DNA from: Escherichia virus TH26
Sequence record: MT446400.1
Direction: 5' to 3' (one strand)
DNA length: 51,200 nt
Shown: positions 1,374-38,608 of the stretch, in pieces
Layout: every line of letters starts with the position of its first letter
Numbering within the stretch: the stretch's first letter is position 1
Made by a program: the position numbers and the translations under genes
The notes under the pieces: model-generated
Seen by the model: the letters and a program-made list of their open reading frames with translations, nothing else
What the model was told of the DNA's origin: nothing
Databases searched by the model: none

Positions 1374-1934
1374 TTATTTATTTCCTAAATACTTATAAAA
1401 TTTGTGTCCACCATAGGTTCCTCTTCCAACAACCCTTTTGAAATTACATTTCTCTGTAGCTGTGCAGAAGTGGGTGGCATCGGTTACATCTGGGGCATCC
1501 AACAATGCGAAGCTAATTGCCACATTCATGGCGTCCCAAACCTGTTTTGATTCAGTCTTCCAATTTGTTTTAACTATGTTCTTCCATTGAGCATTCTTCT
1601 TCTTTGCTTCTCTTGTCCAAGCAAACTGGTTGCGTTGATAAACCACATCGCAAACGGTGTTAGCGAATGGCTTCCCGAATTTGATTCGATTACGGACGAC
1701 ATTAGCTACCAGAATCTTTCCATGCTTGCTTTCTCCACGAGCTTCAAACCAAATTACTTTGGCATAGCATTCTATATCTTTGCGTTGAGAAATAGATAGT
1801 TTCGGATTTCCACTTAAATAGGATTGACTTGCAAATTCTGTAATAGTGGCGTTCACTGCCCCAGCCGAAGCTGGGACATTTGCGTGAAACAGACTCACCA
1901 ACAGAAATGCAAGAACTTGTGCTGAGGGCATCAT
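1374..1934 (-). CDS. Secreted cell-wall hydrolase, SleB/Hydrolase_2-like (candidate Sec- or SAR-type endolysin)
   Basis: 186 aa; N-terminal signal-like segment [24 protein letters not shown]; Hydrolase_2-like core [43 protein letters not shown]; adjacent to a holin-like ORF. Confidence 0.7.
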
Positions 1935-1949: not shown

Positions 1950-2303
1950 TTATTTGGCCTTCTTAAACCAATTGAGTGGGTTGAGTTGTTTGATTGCAGC
2001 AGTGAAGCAATCTCGAATTGTGGTAATGATTAGGTTAGCCCCAATCAAACCAATCACCATTGCAGCGATTGTGGCATAGCGTGGTTCATTTTTGAATATG
2101 TCCACGAAGCCCGGGAGGGAGAAAACGAACGTACCAATGACTACACAAAGTAGGGCATCAAGAATAGCTTTCAGCAAGCCTTCCTTTTCATACGCCCCAC
2201 GAATGAGTGCAGTCAATCCAGCCAGGAGTCCGTGAAGAACCCCATATTGGTGCATAGAATCCCAAATCATTTGGAATGTAAGTCTGTCCATTTGGCGTTC
2301 CAC
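1950..2303 (-). CDS. Putative holin (small protein with 2-3 predicted transmembrane helices)
   Basis: 117 aa; hydrophobic helices (LHGLLAGLTALI, AILDALLCVVIGTFVFSLPGFV, YATIAAMVIGLIGANLIITTI), charged C-terminus, immediately upstream of the hydrolase. Confidence 0.45.
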   Translation of the reverse strand: MERQMDRLTFQMIWDSMHQYGVLHGLLAGLTALIRGAYEKEGLLKAILDALLCVVIGTFVFSLPGFVDIFKNEPRYATIAAMVIGLIGANLIITTIRDCFTAAIKQLNPLNWFKKAK

Positions 2304-2305
2304 TG

Positions 2306-2536
2306 TTAAAACAAAGTCTCATGCTTTGGCATATCTACATAACCAAGTTTGCCATTCACAATGCCAACCTGTTTACCAGAAGGGTTAGTTGCTGAAATAA
2401 ATTTAAGGGCATCTGAAGCAGTTACATCCAAGAAGTTAACTACAGGCCACACATTAGTAGACTCATATGCTTCTTTGAATTCATACGGGTAAAACAACCC
2501 ATTACTAAAACGGTATGTAATCTTTTCCATTATCAA
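2306..2536 (-). CDS. Hypothetical protein (possible tail-fiber assembly chaperone by position)
   Basis: 76 aa ORF directly downstream of a tail-fiber gene; 4-nt overlap typical of coupled genes. Confidence 0.3.
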   Translation of the reverse strand: MIMEKITYRFSNGLFYPYEFKEAYESTNVWPVVNFLDVTASDALKFISATNPSGKQVGIVNGKLGYVDMPKHETLF

Positions 2537-3078
2537 TATCCTATAGCAATCCAGTTACAGTTCTCAGCAGCACCGCTTGGGGCATAGTTCTGGATATATA
2601 TTTGGTTATTTCCGAGAGTAGCACCCATACCAGCATTTGAACCGGGAGCACCACGTGAGCCTGCTGCCCACAATCCTGCATGTGGAAATGCAATATTCAG
2701 GTTGTAGTTTTGTGCAGAATTTGGTGGAGTTGCCACAGTTCCCCACTGAATGATTACAGTTACTGCACCACCAGAAGTTGCAATGATTGGGACTTTCAAC
2801 CAACCATTGGCAGCCATTAGGCCTCCAAAAGCTTCGATTGGTGGGAGATACCCGAACACATTAGAACCAACTTGTCGTGTAGCAGCAGTGCCTAATCCGA
2901 GGTTATTACGAGAAACAGCTTTGTCCAGCAAGTCTGCTAGGTTCTGTCCTCTTTGGAGGGCATTGACAATACGAGCATCATCGCCAGCAGCAAGAGTGTT
3001 TGTAGTGGTGCCAACATTCAAGAAGGCACCATTTTTAAGTGCGGCAACTAAGCCGCCAAATGACCAACCTTTAGCCAT
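2533..3078 (-). CDS. Tail fiber protein (distal/tip segment)
   Basis: 181 aa; Gly/Ala/Thr/Asn-rich beta-type composition typical of fiber tips; last gene of the fiber cluster. Confidence 0.4.
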   Translation of the reverse strand: MAKGWSFGGLVAALKNGAFLNVGTTTNTLAAGDDARIVNALQRGQNLADLLDKAVSRNNLGLGTAATRQVGSNVFGYLPPIEAFGGLMAANGWLKVPIIATSGGAVTVIIQWGTVATPPNSAQNYNLNIAFPHAGLWAAGSRGAPGSNAGMGATLGNNQIYIQNYAPSGAAENCNWIAIGY

Positions 3079-3087
3079 TATCTTTCC

Positions 3088-4479
3088 TTATAAAGTGGAT
3101 ATTTGGTTTGGAAGCATTTTGAAATCCCAAACTCGGAAGTTGCGAACCACATAGTTTCTTGAGGTTGGACGATAGTGAATCTGTGGATATCTTCCAACAC
3201 ACGCAGCCGCAGCATTTTGTGAAGTGTCGGAGGCTACACGAACGCCATCAACATAAATCTCAAGCCCACTGGTTGTGCTGAGGGTTGCAACAATTCGATA
3301 CCAGCGGTTCACCTGACCAGGGAGATTATAGTAAATCCAATCACTGGCGCCAGAGGCATTTCGGTTAAGATTAAGCTGCCCTTTGTTCTGGAGATAGAAA
3401 TTTATATTCTCATTGTTCAGCCCGTTTAAGGAGAAGGACACACCAATAGAGTCATCGCTATCTGGTGCACGAGGTGTGTTGGAGAGAATGTCTACGCATA
3501 TTGTACAATCAGTAAATCCATATCCAGCACCCTCGTACATCACATCCAGATTGTCCTGACCAGCAGTTCGGTACAAAGCCCCACCATAGGCATTATTAAA
3601 ATACAAATTGTCGGGGGCGTTAATTGCACCCTTTCCACAATAAATGTGGAAATCATCAATCAAATGTTGGCAGAAGTTTGGTTCTGGTACAGCATACTTT
3701 GGTTCTTCACGAGCCTTAACTTCTGCAAATGTTGCATCAGTAATGATTCGAGAGTTGGTGTTTGTTGAAGCCTTGCCAACAACTGGAACGCCACTGGCAT
3801 CCAGACCAATACGTGTATCACCAGACTGCATATAGAAGCCAGTAGGGCCGAATGACAACTTGGTGGTCCCACTTGCATCAAACAACATACCTTGCTGGAA
3901 TGTAACAGGTCCGGTATAAGTGCCGCCAATGATAGGTACAGCACCTGCCTGAGCAGCAGTTACTTGATGGGGATTGTTTCGGTCGTCGGCATGACTTGCA
4001 ACAAGGGCATTGTATTGAGCAATCAACGAATCGATTTGTGCTTTGTTGTATGCACCAATCATGTTGGCTGTTAGTCTGTGCGGGTTAGAGGTAACATCTG
4101 CAATGTGTGCAGAAATCTTACCAACAATATCATCGTAGTCATAACGAGATACTTGAATCGCACTTGCAGCCCACTGCCCTAAGTTCTGGCTAGGACGTAG
4201 AGTACGGCTGGGAGAACCAACAGTTGCAACATAGACAGTTTGAGTTGCATCATCCCACACAAGGGAACCAAGTCCGTACTGAACATCGGTTCCCCATTCG
4301 AAGACACCACGTTCAGCTAATGCCAGAAGAGTAGTGTCAACCTTATACTGCAAATAGTTAAGAACCTGGAAGGTTGGGATTTCTGCAATCCACCCTTGAA
4401 GATACTTAGCATCCCCAGGGTCACGCCGTAAGTTGGCGTTGTTCGAAGTCCAGACTCTATTAAGTTTTGGTCTTAACAT
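3088..4479 (-). CDS. Tail fiber protein with C-terminal LamG/concanavalin-like jelly-roll domain
   Basis: 463 aa; NPHQVT-type fiber repeat motif; C-terminal ~150 aa (WIYYNLPGQVNRWYRIVATL...IYVDGVRVAS) resembles a LamG-like lectin domain. Confidence 0.5.
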   Translation of the reverse strand: MLRPKLNRVWTSNNANLRRDPGDAKYLQGWIAEIPTFQVLNYLQYKVDTTLLALAERGVFEWGTDVQYGLGSLVWDDATQTVYVATVGSPSRTLRPSQNLGQWAASAIQVSRYDYDDIVGKISAHIADVTSNPHRLTANMIGAYNKAQIDSLIAQYNALVASHADDRNNPHQVTAAQAGAVPIIGGTYTGPVTFQQGMLFDASGTTKLSFGPTGFYMQSGDTRIGLDASGVPVVGKASTNTNSRIITDATFAEVKAREEPKYAVPEPNFCQHLIDDFHIYCGKGAINAPDNLYFNNAYGGALYRTAGQDNLDVMYEGAGYGFTDCTICVDILSNTPRAPDSDDSIGVSFSLNGLNNENINFYLQNKGQLNLNRNASGASDWIYYNLPGQVNRWYRIVATLSTTSGLEIYVDGVRVASDTSQNAAAACVGRYPQIHYRPTSRNYVVRNFRVWDFKMLPNQISTL

Positions 4480-5678
4480 TATCGTCTCGCAAGCATAGAG
4501 ATTTGGTTAGCAGAAAGTCTTGGATATACGGCAAAGAATCTTAGAGCCATAACAGTCTTATCTGCAAATAAGTTATTATCAATGTAGTCTTTCAAATCAA
4601 GTCCGTCAGGAAAGTTGAAAGAATCCCCATTGGCAGTTCGCATGACCACGTCAACTTCATCGGTAGTAACCACAACAACCACAGTAGTCGGTATGTCCAG
4701 AATCGGACCAAAGAATTTCAGCCCATTGTTGGAGATTTTAAATCCACCATACCAAAACTCTGGGGCAATGGCTGTCTCAACAGTCCACAAACCAACAGAC
4801 TCTGCATCATTAATATCTTCATGGAAGTTGGCACGGAGCATTGGCACAGGAAGTGCAAACTGATTTCCGTACTTAATGTTGAAGCTGTTGTAGTTTGCTT
4901 CTGTGATGATTTCAAAAGCGCCAGCAGAGTTGATAAACCACGCGTGTCCACCACTATCCACACCGATTGCAGTAGTTCCGTTTACCAATTCAAATACACC
5001 AGTCGAATCATTTCGATGTGCATATTGTGAAACACCGCTACCAGCATACGCTTCTTCGATAAAAGCTATTGGCCCTGTGAAAGTTCCACCAGATGTTGGG
5101 AGTGTTCCGAGCTGTTCTGGGGTCACCCTGTGAACAGATGCACCAGTTCTGGAGATGTGGTACGGGATTGTCGTAACTCGTTCGTCACTGGCGAACCTGT
5201 CATACACATAATCTTGAAGGTATGTCCCATCAACAATTGTGTCCACAGTATCTTTGTGGGGGTTCTGTTCTGCCATGTGGGCATTGAACGTATTCTTGAG
5301 ATATTGAACCTTAGTATTATACTGAACAAGGTTAGTTTCAAGAACTTCCTGCCACCCACTTCCAGAAGTTGGGGGACTTATGTTTCCAGGAATCTCTTCC
5401 CGCTTCTGATAAATCTTACCATCAACTAATGCAAAAGCGCCAAGCGAATATGTTACGGTATCACACCATTGCAGTATGCCACCAAGTAACATCTCTCGAA
5501 TCTTGACGTCAGTGATTTGAGTTAAGAAGTTCTGCCATTGCTCGGGAGGCTTTTCAGCTTCCCAACCAACAGTTTCATACCTATCTGGAATATATGATGG
5601 TGCAGTTGTATCCAAGTCGGGGTCAAGTGCTTCGCCATCCTGCGCCCAATACTCTGGGTAATTAAAACGATTTGTCAT
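4479..5678 (-). CDS. Tail fiber / baseplate-attached fiber protein
   Basis: 399 aa; NPH motif (MAEQNPHKDTV), Gly/Thr-rich segments; sits between the baseplate genes and the distal fiber. Confidence 0.45.
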   Translation of the reverse strand: MTNRFNYPEYWAQDGEALDPDLDTTAPSYIPDRYETVGWEAEKPPEQWQNFLTQITDVKIREMLLGGILQWCDTVTYSLGAFALVDGKIYQKREEIPGNISPPTSGSGWQEVLETNLVQYNTKVQYLKNTFNAHMAEQNPHKDTVDTIVDGTYLQDYVYDRFASDERVTTIPYHISRTGASVHRVTPEQLGTLPTSGGTFTGPIAFIEEAYAGSGVSQYAHRNDSTGVFELVNGTTAIGVDSGGHAWFINSAGAFEIITEANYNSFNIKYGNQFALPVPMLRANFHEDINDAESVGLWTVETAIAPEFWYGGFKISNNGLKFFGPILDIPTTVVVVVTTDEVDVVMRTANGDSFNFPDGLDLKDYIDNNLFADKTVMALRFFAVYPRLSANQISMLARR

Positions 5679-14698: not shown

Positions 14699-14866
14699 TG
14701 TCTTCTTCTTTAGGTTTTAATTCATTACGCAAATCAAGTATTGCGTGGAAGGTCAACAAATCCATAATAGAGTAGGTCCCATCTTGTAACTCTTTAAGAG
14801 AACAGAGTGAACTGTCCTCTATTACAGGACGGTGCAAGAAGTATCTTATTTCCGGGAACTTTGCAG

Positions 14867-15325
14867 TTAAATCGTTTCCGGACTCGAATTCTTCTGCTCG
14901 GCCATCTTGGATGCCTCCGCCGCCTCCAATCGTCTGCGTTCGTTGAGTTCGAGCCCTTGCTTGAAAAAATCAAGGAAGTTCGATTCCAAAACAAATGCAA
15001 ACACATGGTGCATGAGCATCAAGTTGCCGTTGTATTTCATCTGCATAGTGCGTGGATTAACTTCGACACCATCAATGGTTGCCATACACACTACACGTTT
15101 AATCAATTCTGTTACTTCATTGCTCGTCCCACCTTGCTGCATTAAATAAATAATGTCTGCAAAGTTATATTTATTCTCAACGAACGGGAAGATTGAAGTT
15201 CCGAGTTTCTGAACAAGCTCGACTTGAAGGTCAAGAGCTTGGCTGGCACTCAATTGACGAGTACCAACCAAGACAACATCACCAGAGTCGGCTTGTAACT
15301 CGCGTTGACGAAGTTCACAAGCCAT
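14867..15325 (-). CDS. Tail assembly chaperone (gpG-like, by position)
   Basis: 152 aa acidic protein between the tail tube and tape-measure genes. Confidence 0.35.
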   Translation of the reverse strand: MACELRQRELQADSGDVVLVGTRQLSASQALDLQVELVQKLGTSIFPFVENKYNFADIIYLMQQGGTSNEVTELIKRVVCMATIDGVEVNPRTMQMKYNGNLMLMHHVFAFVLESNFLDFFKQGLELNERRRLEAAEASKMAEQKNSSPETI

Positions 15326-30765: not shown

Positions 30766-31038
30766 TTAATCAACTTGCAACATTGCAAGCTGGATGTCAT
30801 ATCCAACTAATACTTCGGACAGCTCTTCAATTGAAGTAGTCGCCGAGACTAAAGTTTGGAGGTTTTTAAATATCTCATCGTTATGTGCTTGAGACTGTGT
30901 GTCGGACAAATAGAATACTTTGTCCTTAATCTTTTCAAGGAACGCCATTACAGCGTCCTTTGCGAGAACTTCGGAATCGGTAGCAAACATATGGTGCCCT
31001 GATTCCTGCATATCAAAAATAGAATATACAGTTTGCAT
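30766..31038 (-). CDS. Hypothetical protein
   Basis: 90 aa ORF directly downstream of the DNA polymerase gene. Confidence 0.3.
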   Translation of the reverse strand: MQTVYSIFDMQESGHHMFATDSEVLAKDAVMAFLEKIKDKVFYLSDTQSQAHNDEIFKNLQTLVSATTSIEELSEVLVGYDIQLAMLQVD

Positions 31039-35994: not shown

Positions 35995-36216
35995 TTATTT
36001 TAATGATGCCTGTAATGACGCATTTAGTACAGAACGCTTTTCATATTCGCGTTGATTGTACGTGTTTGTCAGTGCTTCCGCAGCTTCGATTGACAGAGCC
36101 GCAAATCCACCAAAGGCGTTGCGAACTTCTTCAATATCCATGTGCAGGACTTCATTGGTAATTTGGTTGGCAATTGCAGCCTTGAAAATCTCTTCGGCAA
36201 TTTCAGCAGTTTTCAT
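35995..36216 (-). CDS. Hypothetical protein
   Basis: 73 aa ORF downstream of the ThyX-like gene. Confidence 0.3.
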   Translation of the reverse strand: MKTAEIAEEIFKAAIANQITNEVLHMDIEEVRNAFGGFAALSIEAAEALTNTYNQREYEKRSVLNASLQASLK

Positions 36217-36865
36217 GTTTCTCTCCAGTTAAATTTAAGTAAGTGCCCTGACGTGGACTATTACGAACATTACAATAAATTGGCTTAAATGATGTTTCCA
36301 CTGCGGCCAAGACACTTATTAAATTTGATTCGAACCGCCCAAGTGAATCAGCTTTGTTTATGGGGACCATCGGGGAAAAGTATAAACCCGCTTAATGCTC
36401 GCATCATGTTTGAACATTAAGAACCCTGACTTGCATATTTCATGTGAATAGGAACATAGTCTGGATTTTGAATCCAGCTAACTTCGAGAAGAGGAGTAGC
36501 TCAAACGAAAGCCTGAACTTTCTTTCGACACATCACAATCAGCGCAACTGAGCCGTATCGCTACGGTATGCCAGACGCTCTCTTGAGCCTTTTGAACAGA
36601 GGCATAACTGCTTAGGAATTCTGTGGCCTTTACGCGGCCAACGTGCCATTAATGCTGGCAAGACAGAGCTAACGTTCTCAAGCACTTTGGCGAGGGTGTT
36701 CTCGGACACTGTTCTAGGAAGTGACCACCTGAACTTTCTCGCGTTCAATACGAGGCAGCAATTTCAATTGTTATGCCCAGAGCAATTGCAGGAATTACAC
36801 CTGCCATGCTACAAGTAGCTAGAGTCTCGTTATTTAAAGTCGCGCACTCCCTCGACTTTGTTCAC

Positions 36866-37075
36866 TCACTGTCGGGTAAGTTGGGAACACTTTTGTGCCC
36901 ACGTTTCATTGTGGACTAAAATCTGGGTTTTGGTTTCGCGTGACAAAACTTTCACTTCTGCAACATCCAAATAGGTTGGTTGTGCAATTAAGCAATAATC
37001 ACTTACGAACCCACTTTGAGAGCAACTCACTATCGACATTGCTATCAGAACTGCTAGACACTTCTTTCTGAACAT
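36866..37075 (-). CDS. Outer-membrane spanin-like lipoprotein (o-spanin candidate)
   Basis: 69 aa; signal peptide with lipobox-like SIVSC; short mature part with additional Cys; overlaps the 3' part of the preceding ORF in another frame. Confidence 0.5.
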   Translation of the reverse strand: MFRKKCLAVLIAMSIVSCSQSGFVSDYCLIAQPTYLDVAEVKVLSRETKTQILVHNETWAQKCSQLTRQ

Positions 37076-37235
37076 GCGATTTAATCTCGATAGATTCTTT
37101 TAACGAATCGAATTGCTTCTCTTTGGCTTCCTGACGCTCCTCGGCTTTGCCTGAGCTTTTGCCCTTGAGGAACACTGCAATGAGAATACCCAATGCAGTC
37201 AAGACGCCAAGAAATATTGACTTAAGCTGTTGCAT
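36999..37235 (-). CDS. Inner-membrane spanin-like protein (i-spanin candidate)
   Basis: 78 aa; N-terminal transmembrane helix (IFLGVLTALGILIAVFL) followed by a charged, coiled-coil-like segment. Confidence 0.45.
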   Translation of the reverse strand: MQQLKSIFLGVLTALGILIAVFLKGKSSGKAEERQEAKEKQFDSLKESIEIKSHVQKEVSSSSDSNVDSELLSKWVRK

Positions 37236-37399
37236 GAATCACCTTAGATGGCGCACGCACCACTTGAACAGTCGTTATCGCCAGCACCAGGAACGATTGC
37301 TTCTTCGTCCTGCTTCTTCTTAAGTTCTTCAATCGCCTCTTCGGCAGCACCGAAGTCCAAATTGTCTAGTGCGTCAATGTCCATGAGGACTCCATGTTT

Positions 37400-37495
37400 G
37401 TTGTTGAGAGTGGCGGACGAGGTTGGATTCGAACCAACGACACATCTGTCTTACAGATTGCTCTACCTGACTAAGCTCTGGAGCAGACCTTCTGA
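37400..37495 (-). tRNA. tRNA gene (96 nt with encoded CCA) carrying a ~19-nt insertion in the D-arm region; anticodon not confidently assigned
   Basis: Minus-strand sequence has a 7-bp acceptor stem (GGACGAG/CTCGTCC), a T-arm GTTGG-TTCGAAT-CCAAC, discriminator G plus CCA, D-arm elements GCTCAG...GTCAGGTAGAGC, and an extra hairpin AAGGTCTG-CTC-CAGAGCTT. Confidence 0.55.
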
Positions 37496-38164
37496 GCTAC
37501 TCGTCCAAAGAATAAGAGGGGGGTTTTGATAACGCAGGTTTTCCCGAACTGCGAGGCTTGTAGCAAGACAGTCGCATTACTTTGCGAATGCCAGCAGGAT
37601 TGATGGTCCGACCGTCTTTGCTTAGGCAACCTGATTTAATCTACCTTTGTAGATACCATCGGTTATGAGCAGTTTATTTCCATGCTCAGGGCAATTCACT
37701 TTAGGCGAATTAAGTTTGTACCTTGTCACACCCGCACGCACCTGGGGGGCTTAAGTCTGCATTACATCGCAAGATACAAATTAATTGGCTCTCCGATTTA
37801 TTAATCACATCTCGGAGAAACAATGCGCCAAATTTGGTTACATGGGATTGGAAGACCACGGAGAGGACTTAAATTTAATTAAGCCGCAACTCGCATTTCA
37901 GAATCATTTGCACTTGTGTTTAGTGTTTAAAACAGTCGCAATAACTTCAGGCAGTTTAGGCCCGTCGTAAGACTCAGAAAACTACTTCAATTTGTACACA
38001 ACAAATTTCCCAACATTGGCTTCCGTCGAAGGCTCATGCGATGGTGTTTGGATTATGCACAAATTGAAACCCACTCACTCGGAATGGATTCAAGGCAGCA
38101 CCGGAAATCTTCCAGTGCATGCCAGATCGATTTAGCTTAGTCTCTCAAGTTTGCCATCGGCAAC

Positions 38165-38580: not shown

Positions 38581-38608
38581 TTCACATTCAATTAATGTTT
38601 CAGAACTG
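38581..38608 (-). promoter_or_regulatory. Conserved promoter-like motif (degenerate copy), putative phage-RNAP promoter
   Basis: Plus strand reads ttcacattcaATTAATGtttcagaactg; matches the 8-member motif family; about 90 nt upstream of the 38503 start. Confidence 0.4.

Follow-up and report, generated by a model that had tools for sequence, protein, structure and literature searches.

A probable overlapped two-component spanin between a tRNA-like gene and thyX in a phiEcoM-GJ1-like myophage

Two overlapping open reading frames (ORFs) of Escherichia virus TH26 (record MT446400.1), which encode proteins of 78 and 69 aa, very probably represent the overlapped two-component spanin of a phiEcoM-GJ1-like myophage, the two-component class being taken in the sense of Summer 2007 and Kongari 2018. 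The whole analysed stretch of 51,200 nucleotides is hereafter called the window, and the spanin function of the pair rests on the homology to bioinformatically assigned spanins together with the gene neighbourhood. An earlier sequence-only reading of the window had proposed an i-spanin/o-spanin pair at this place, and the proposal is borne out by the transmembrane domain (TMD), the lipobox, the matches to PHROG 1026 and PHROG 1275, the constraint apparent in both frames, the endolysin-linked homologues and the listing of Kongari 2018. As an ordinary two-component spanin, the pair is already catalogued. Thus, phiEcoM-GJ1 is listed with an overlapped two-component spanin in SpaninDB (Kongari et al. 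2018, BMC Bioinformatics 19:326, PMC6139136), where the supplementary tables give the pair as 'ovl', at 14724-14961 and 14884-15094, with an overlap of 77 and proteins of 78 and 69 aa, whose periplasmic domains comprise 55 and 52 aa; in the i-spanin, 35 of the 55 periplasmic residues (64%) are helical, and there is one coiled-coil segment at 26-58. A lysis test, topology test or solved structure for the PHROG 1026/1275 family was not found in the literature, and the lysis genes are unmentioned in the genome announcements of Mangalitsa and Myduc. The features of the locus are as follows.

36999..37235, minus strand: putative i-spanin gene, 78 aa, recognised by its ORF, hydropathy, PHROG 1026 and annotated orthologues
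36866..37075, minus strand: putative o-spanin gene, 69 aa, recognised by its ORF, lipobox tests, PHROG 1275 and invariant alignment columns
36999..37075, minus strand: 77-nt dual-coding overlap, in different frames, of the i-spanin C-terminus and the o-spanin signal peptide
37239..37245, minus strand: Shine-Dalgarno sequence AAGGTGA, with 3 nt between it and the i-spanin ATG, read from the sequence and kept in relatives
37244..37384, minus strand: very acidic 46-aa ORF (MDIDALDNLDFGAAEEAIEELKKKQDEEAIVPGAGDNDCSSGACAI), immediately upstream of the i-spanin gene

The window belongs to a phiEcoM-GJ1-like myophage (Chaseviridae, Cleopatravirinae, Carltongylesvirus), and about 44 phage genomes from the phiEcoM-GJ1 group are 91-93% identical in nucleotide sequence to the 4-kb stretch round the spanin pair, among them TH37, phiEcoM-GJ1, Mangalitsa, flopper and the Yersinia PYps phages. 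Since nearly all genes of the window are on the minus strand, it corresponds to the reverse complement of the usual map. The pair is placed between the tRNA-like gene and thyX, as in phiEcoM-GJ1, and sits among the early/middle genes, between the anti-restriction and endolysin genes on the one side and the replication genes on the other.

The single N-terminal TMD of an i-spanin was found by hydropathy in the 78-aa protein, in agreement with the N-terminal TM helix described for it earlier: the sole strongly hydrophobic stretch comprises residues 7-25, IFLGVLTALGILIAVFLKG, with a Kyte-Doolittle mean of 2.33 over 19 residues, while the rest of the protein is charged and the whole of it is free of Cys. 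The TMD is followed by a putative periplasmic domain of 55 aa, charged and predicted to be helical, which lies at the short end of the known range. The charges flanking the TMD amount to about +2 on each side, so that the N-in/C-out topology is not clearly dictated by them. The C-terminal motif SDSNVDSELLSKWVRK is kept family-wide, and residues 1-78 are aligned with positions 4-84 of 85 of the profile PHROG 1026 'Rz-like spanin' (2e-19). The Shine-Dalgarno sequence of this gene is strong and encloses the stop codon TAA with which the 46-aa ORF upstream ends, an arrangement suggestive of translational coupling between the two. The 46-aa ORF gave no PHROG or Pfam match; its counterparts before the i-spanin genes of Erwinia phage Faunus and Aeromonas phage phiA050 have the C-terminal N-D-C-x(2-3)-C-[AK]-I in common with it.

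The second protein, earlier read as a 69-aa lipoprotein with a lipobox, carries the signal of an outer-membrane lipoprotein indeed: MFRKK and a hydrophobic core are followed by the lipobox I-V-S-C with Cys18, which satisfies a PS51257-like PROSITE pattern, and the residue +2 is Ser19, not Asp, being of the outer-membrane sorting type. The mature o-spanin would consist of 52 aa, with two further Cys (C28 and C63) and a single Pro, and in the o-spanin alignment C18, C28, P33 and C63 are invariant. Residues 1-67 match positions 4-73 of 81 of the profile PHROG 1275 'Rz-like spanin' (8e-17). The ribosome-binding site of the o-spanin gene is weak (GAG, about 10 nt upstream). At least one periplasmic Cys is present in a component of about 96% of two-component spanin systems (class per Summer 2007 and Kongari 2018, PMC6139136), and the window pair has none in the i-spanin and two in the mature o-spanin.

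Of the two genes, which share one strand, the i-spanin gene comes first; their starts are 160 nt apart, which puts the second ORF in the +1 frame with respect to the first. The overlap in a different frame that had been noticed in the letters thus amounts to 77 nt, and the o-spanin gene runs 133 nt past the i-spanin stop, which assigns the pair to the 'overlapped' class. In an alignment of eight distinct close relatives, nucleotide diversity pi was 0.0065 in the overlap, where only 2 of the 77 sites were variable, as compared with 0.076 in the i-spanin-only part, 0.056 in the o-spanin-only part and 0.12-0.18 in the flanks. The overlap is therefore about ten-fold less variable than the single-coding parts, and such a dip confined to the overlap is a prediction of double coding. 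In the o-spanin-only part, codon position 3 of the o-spanin frame holds 10 of the 17 variable sites. As judged from these patterns of variation, both frames are under constraint.

These data bear directly on the proposal that only the 78-aa gene is real, whereas the 69-aa frame is fortuitous and its lipobox arose by chance. The 69-aa ORF is the one ORF with a lipoprotein signal among the 286 ORFs that reach 50 aa in the six frames of the window, and shuffled window sequences yield 0-2 lipobox ORFs, so that the lipobox alone is not beyond chance; moreover, the ORF is unannotated by most gene callers and in many relatives' records, several GenBank records among them, and a search of 5.8 billion proteins with the o-spanin returned only 2 close relatives. 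However, the missing annotations fit the known tendency of gene callers to pass over overlapped genes (Kongari 2018, PMC6139136), and the scarcity of relatives in the protein search presumably reflects that overlapped genes are seldom called. The open frame, the lipobox, C28, P33 and C63 remain unchanged throughout, from Carltongylesvirus as far as Pseudomonas phage AF and the 428 o-spanin relatives that were obtained in IMG/VR by a pattern scan with the o-spanin alignment. The o-spanin frame does not depend on the i-spanin frame, because 4HA13, Faunus and phiA050 encode the same protein with an overlap of only 4 nt. Together with the third-position excess and the low variability of the overlap against either side, this makes a chance frame exceedingly improbable; it was rejected on the conservation and on the diversity dip, and it is the conservation, not the lipobox by itself, that places the pair beyond chance.

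The orthologues of the pair are those of phiEcoM-GJ1 (gp31 and the o-spanin overlapping it) and Mangalitsa (gp37 and gp38), with 95-97% protein identity; they are like the window pair in the sizes of 78 and 69 aa, the overlap of 77 nt and the lipobox, have the tRNA-like gene on one side and thyX on the other, as it does, and differ from it in few substitutions, such as T34 of the window o-spanin, which is I34 in the relatives, the architecture being the same. The i-spanin and the o-spanin are also found together, at the corresponding site upstream of thyX, in four further genera of Chaseviridae (Sabourvirus 4HA13, Faunusvirus Faunus, Suwonvirus PM1 and Aeromonas phage phiA050), where the i-spanins are 34-38% and the o-spanins 44-54% identical and the TMD, the lipobox and both Cys are kept. 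Beyond this family, a tblastn search of phage records with the o-spanin found relatives at 27-38% identity in unrelated phages. The profiles PHROG 1026 and 1275 are matched also by the pairs of the mEp390-type prophages, Fostie, AF and 4HA13. The gene order in mEp390 and Fostie is holin, endolysin, short TMD protein and lipoprotein, and in Pseudomonas phage AF the endolysin is followed by the spanin pair.

The neighbourhood survey covered the best 80 of the 428 IMG/VR loci. An overlapping upstream partner with an N-terminal TMD was present in 79 of these 80 loci, with a length of 78-122 aa and a median overlap of 86 nt, and in all 79 complete pairs the o-spanin has exactly two extra Cys, while the i-spanin has no periplasmic Cys. 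An enzyme of the GH108+PG_binding_3 or GH19 type, that is an endolysin, is encoded directly upstream in 57 of the best 80 loci. The i-spanin C-terminal motif common to the IMG/VR relatives is D-x-V-D/N-x-E-L-x-x-x-W-x-R. The pairs of mEp390, Fostie, AF and IMG/VR are of the same design, with i-spanins of about 80-120 aa and o-spanins of 68-83 aa, and share only 33-38% protein identity with the window pair; they directly follow a GH108 or GH19 endolysin, usually after a holin, whereas the Chaseviridae pairs are detached from both. Neither protein of the window matches Pfam Rz PF03245 or Rz1 PF06085, even at E <= 1, and sequence searches of Pfam, NCBIfam and PDB chains gave nothing meaningful for either of them. 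By these profile comparisons, the pair belongs to PHROG 1026/1275 and not to the Pfam families of lambda Rz/Rz1.

The location of the pair with respect to the other lysis genes, and the promoter-like sites considered below, involve the following features.

1950..2303, minus strand: holin, 117 aa (Pfam PF05106 Phage_holin_3_1, 3.9e-9; PHROG 126 holin/anti-holin, 1.6e-20)
1374..1934, minus strand: SleB-type cell-wall hydrolase, 186 aa (Pfam PF07486 Hydrolase_2, 9e-16; PHROG 938 endolysin, 5e-20)
41911..42306, minus strand: M15 L-alanyl-D-glutamate peptidase, 131 aa (Pfam PF13539, 8.9e-9; PHROG 465 endolysin, 2.6e-54)
37414..37506, minus strand: tRNA-like gene, 93 nt, 178 nt upstream of the i-spanin gene (Rfam RF00005, 41.5 bits against a gathering score of 29)
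41025..41042, 40884..40901, 38587..38604 and 30802..30819, all minus strand: phage-promoter-like sites matching the GJ1 consensus

The usual, though not defining, location in a lysis cassette does not apply to the pair: the holin and the SleB-type hydrolase are 34.6 kb away from it, and the M15 peptidase is at a distance of 4.7 kb. The distance of about 35 kb from the holin given earlier agrees with the 34,563 nt measured, and the accompanying statement that the pair is away from the endolysin is right for the SleB-type hydrolase and fails for the M15 peptidase, which is only 4,676 nt upstream of the spanin genes and is an endolysin by annotation in Mangalitsa (gp22) and GJ1 (gp21). The SleB-type hydrolase has a hydrophobic N-terminal signal and adjoins the lambda-S-type holin; it is a candidate for a secreted or SAR-type endolysin. 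The two different peptidoglycan hydrolases are at opposite ends of the map, both being candidate endolysins, and the M15 peptidase is soluble, its early-region gene being upstream of the sites that resemble phage promoters.

The promoter consensus TCTGAAACATTAGTTGGA was taken from the annotated phage-RNA-polymerase promoters of phiEcoM-GJ1, with matches accepted at 0-3 mismatches, and four matches were found in the window against 0.12 expected by chance. These promoter-like sites likely mark the starts of middle transcription units. The match nearest upstream of the spanin pair, 38587..38604 on the minus strand, is probably the start of a transcript with the tRNA-like gene, the 46-aa ORF and the spanin pair. 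The scan for sigma-70 promoters and intrinsic terminators round the locus gave fewer matches than shuffles and none on the coding strand.

The tRNA that the sequence-only reading had placed next to the pair is found there by Rfam RF00005 only. ARAGORN called no tRNA in the window, and the tRNA-like gene was missed by it also in Mangalitsa, PYps16N, Pel53 and flopper, while the copies of GJ1 and ST32 are 'tRNA-Leu(cag)' by ARAGORN, the GJ1 copy being a tRNA-Arg that 'may contain an intron' in GenBank. The D-loop of the tRNA-like gene holds an insertion of about 22 nt in all relatives, with a possible mini-hairpin (GCTC..GAGC in the window, GCA..TGC in GJ1). The putative anticodon is AAG in the window and PYps16N and TCG in GJ1, Mangalitsa and Pel53, where two adjacent bases differ and the tRNA body is invariant.

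The position of the pair outside the lysis cassette, in the early/middle region, raises the question of whether it encodes envelope proteins with a non-lytic role, such as superinfection exclusion or immunity, made early or in the middle of infection to protect the infected cell. Imm and Sp of T4 and the lipoproteins Llp of T5 and Cor of phi80 are the known examples of such exclusion and immunity proteins. The nearest upstream promoter-like site is of the same class as the others in the early/middle region, a T4 Imm-like 'immunity to superinfection' gene is found about 0.5 kb upstream of the pair in Mangalitsa, and a prophage relative of the o-spanin has a very weak match to the NCBIfam entry-exclusion lipoprotein TrbK, at E = 0.097, far below the cut-off. 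Nevertheless, the homologous pairs directly follow endolysin genes in mEp390, Fostie and AF, as they do in the majority of the IMG/VR loci surveyed (57/80 of the best 80 of 428), and the known exclusion lipoproteins act alone, with no obligatory inner-membrane partner encoded by an overlapping gene, whereas the pairing is retained in 79/80 of the same best loci. The lipobox scan of the 286 ORFs found no other spanin candidate in the window. Exclusion or immunity was rejected on account of the homologues in lysis cassettes and the obligatory pairing, and it is regarded as very unlikely in comparison with the two-component spanin.

The separation of the spanin genes from the holin and endolysin, whose novelty the earlier reading implied, is not unusual and is already known for T4, where pseT.3/pseT.2 are remote from the holin gene t and the endolysin gene e, where the i-spanin has no Cys and both of the two Cys of the o-spanin are required for function, and whose spanin pair complements lambda Rz/Rz1 (Kongari 2018, PMC6139136). 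The T4 proteins PseT.3/PseT.2 are thus like the window pair in the remoteness from the holin/endolysin and in the Cys pattern, the T4 o-spanin being predicted to be partly helical (PMC6139136), and are unlike it in the separated, non-overlapping genes and in the longer proteins (117 and 83 aa); no match of the window pair to a T4-family PHROG or Pfam profile was seen in the profile searches. The likeness to lambda Rz/Rz1 consists in the same functional class, the predicted topology and the second gene in the +1 frame. However, Rz1 lies wholly inside Rz, while the window o-spanin gene continues past the stop of the i-spanin gene. The lambda Rz protein, of 153 aa, contains two Cys and two helical domains, and a single Cys is found in Rz1, which is rich in proline. 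By comparison, the window i-spanin has 78 aa, one helix and no Cys, and its mature partner has one Pro, unlike the proline-rich Rz1.

According to the model developed for lambda Rz/Rz1 and T4 PseT.3/PseT.2, the i-spanin would be held in the inner membrane by its anchor and its C-terminal domain would be periplasmic, while the o-spanin would receive its lipid at Cys18 and be fixed to the outer membrane's inner leaflet. Their C-terminal regions would bind each other to form a bridge threaded through the peptidoglycan mesh, where the intact wall would restrain the complexes. Once the holin has released or activated a peptidoglycan hydrolase, and the wall has been broken down, the complexes would be able to move and collapse, and the collapsed complexes would fuse the inner and outer membranes, thus removing the last barrier to the release of the phage. 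The cysteines of the o-spanin probably form homotypic disulfide links by analogy with T4, such intermolecular links having been proposed as universal for spanins. The phage RNA polymerase probably transcribes the pair as part of a middle unit that starts at about 38.6 kb, and the spanin genes need not adjoin the holin gene, because the proteins would accumulate harmlessly until the wall is removed.

A departure of this short spanin from the lambda paradigm, such as an intramolecular C28-C63 disulfide that stabilises a folded o-spanin, or an additional role in the envelope before lysis, was considered as well. The former is suggested by the i-spanin periplasmic domain, which is short, single-helix and Cys-free, and by C28 and C63 bracketing the conserved core, and the latter by the apparent transcription of the pair with the middle genes far from the holin; such a departure is considered unlikely.

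The pair completes the lysis set of the phage, which comprises the holin, the two candidate peptidoglycan hydrolases and the spanin. The family of PHROG 1026/1275 is large, with its 428 IMG/VR o-spanin loci, and has no Pfam model. Its members are named properly in some records, as with Mangalitsa gp37 and gp38, which are both 'Rz-like spanin' in RefSeq, and the 4HA13 pair labelled 'i-spanin' and 'o-spanin' in GenBank. In several close relatives, the i-spanin is mislabelled 'endolysin' or 'L-alanyl-D-glutamate peptidase', and the overlapped o-spanins are often missed. The correct label of the pair is useful for phage-therapy genomes of the phiEcoM-GJ1 group. Annotation errors of this kind were encountered in PYps16N (4306..4675) and in the records PO103-1, PYps4T and PYps16T, where the 78-aa i-spanin is called 'endolysin'.

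The record PP952070.1 ('Staphylococcus phage Pel53') contains an intact pair at 2501..2858, with an i-spanin that is 86% identical, has a 4-aa deletion and is annotated 'L-alanyl-D-glutamate peptidase', and an o-spanin that is 96% identical. The recorded host is the Gram-positive Staphylococcus hyicus, a label that looks doubtful, since spanins act on outer membranes.

The stretch of about 650 nt downstream of the o-spanin stop (~36217..36865) is the most variable of the neighbourhood among the close relatives, with pi of 0.18 and gaps in 113 columns in the first 400 nt. A conserved minus-strand ORF was not found in it among these relatives, and in the matching region one small plus-strand gene is annotated in Mangalitsa and three small minus-strand genes in PYps16N. 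The 73-aa ORF of PYps16N at 3409..3630, the equivalent of window positions 35995..36216, is called 'tail tape measure protein'.
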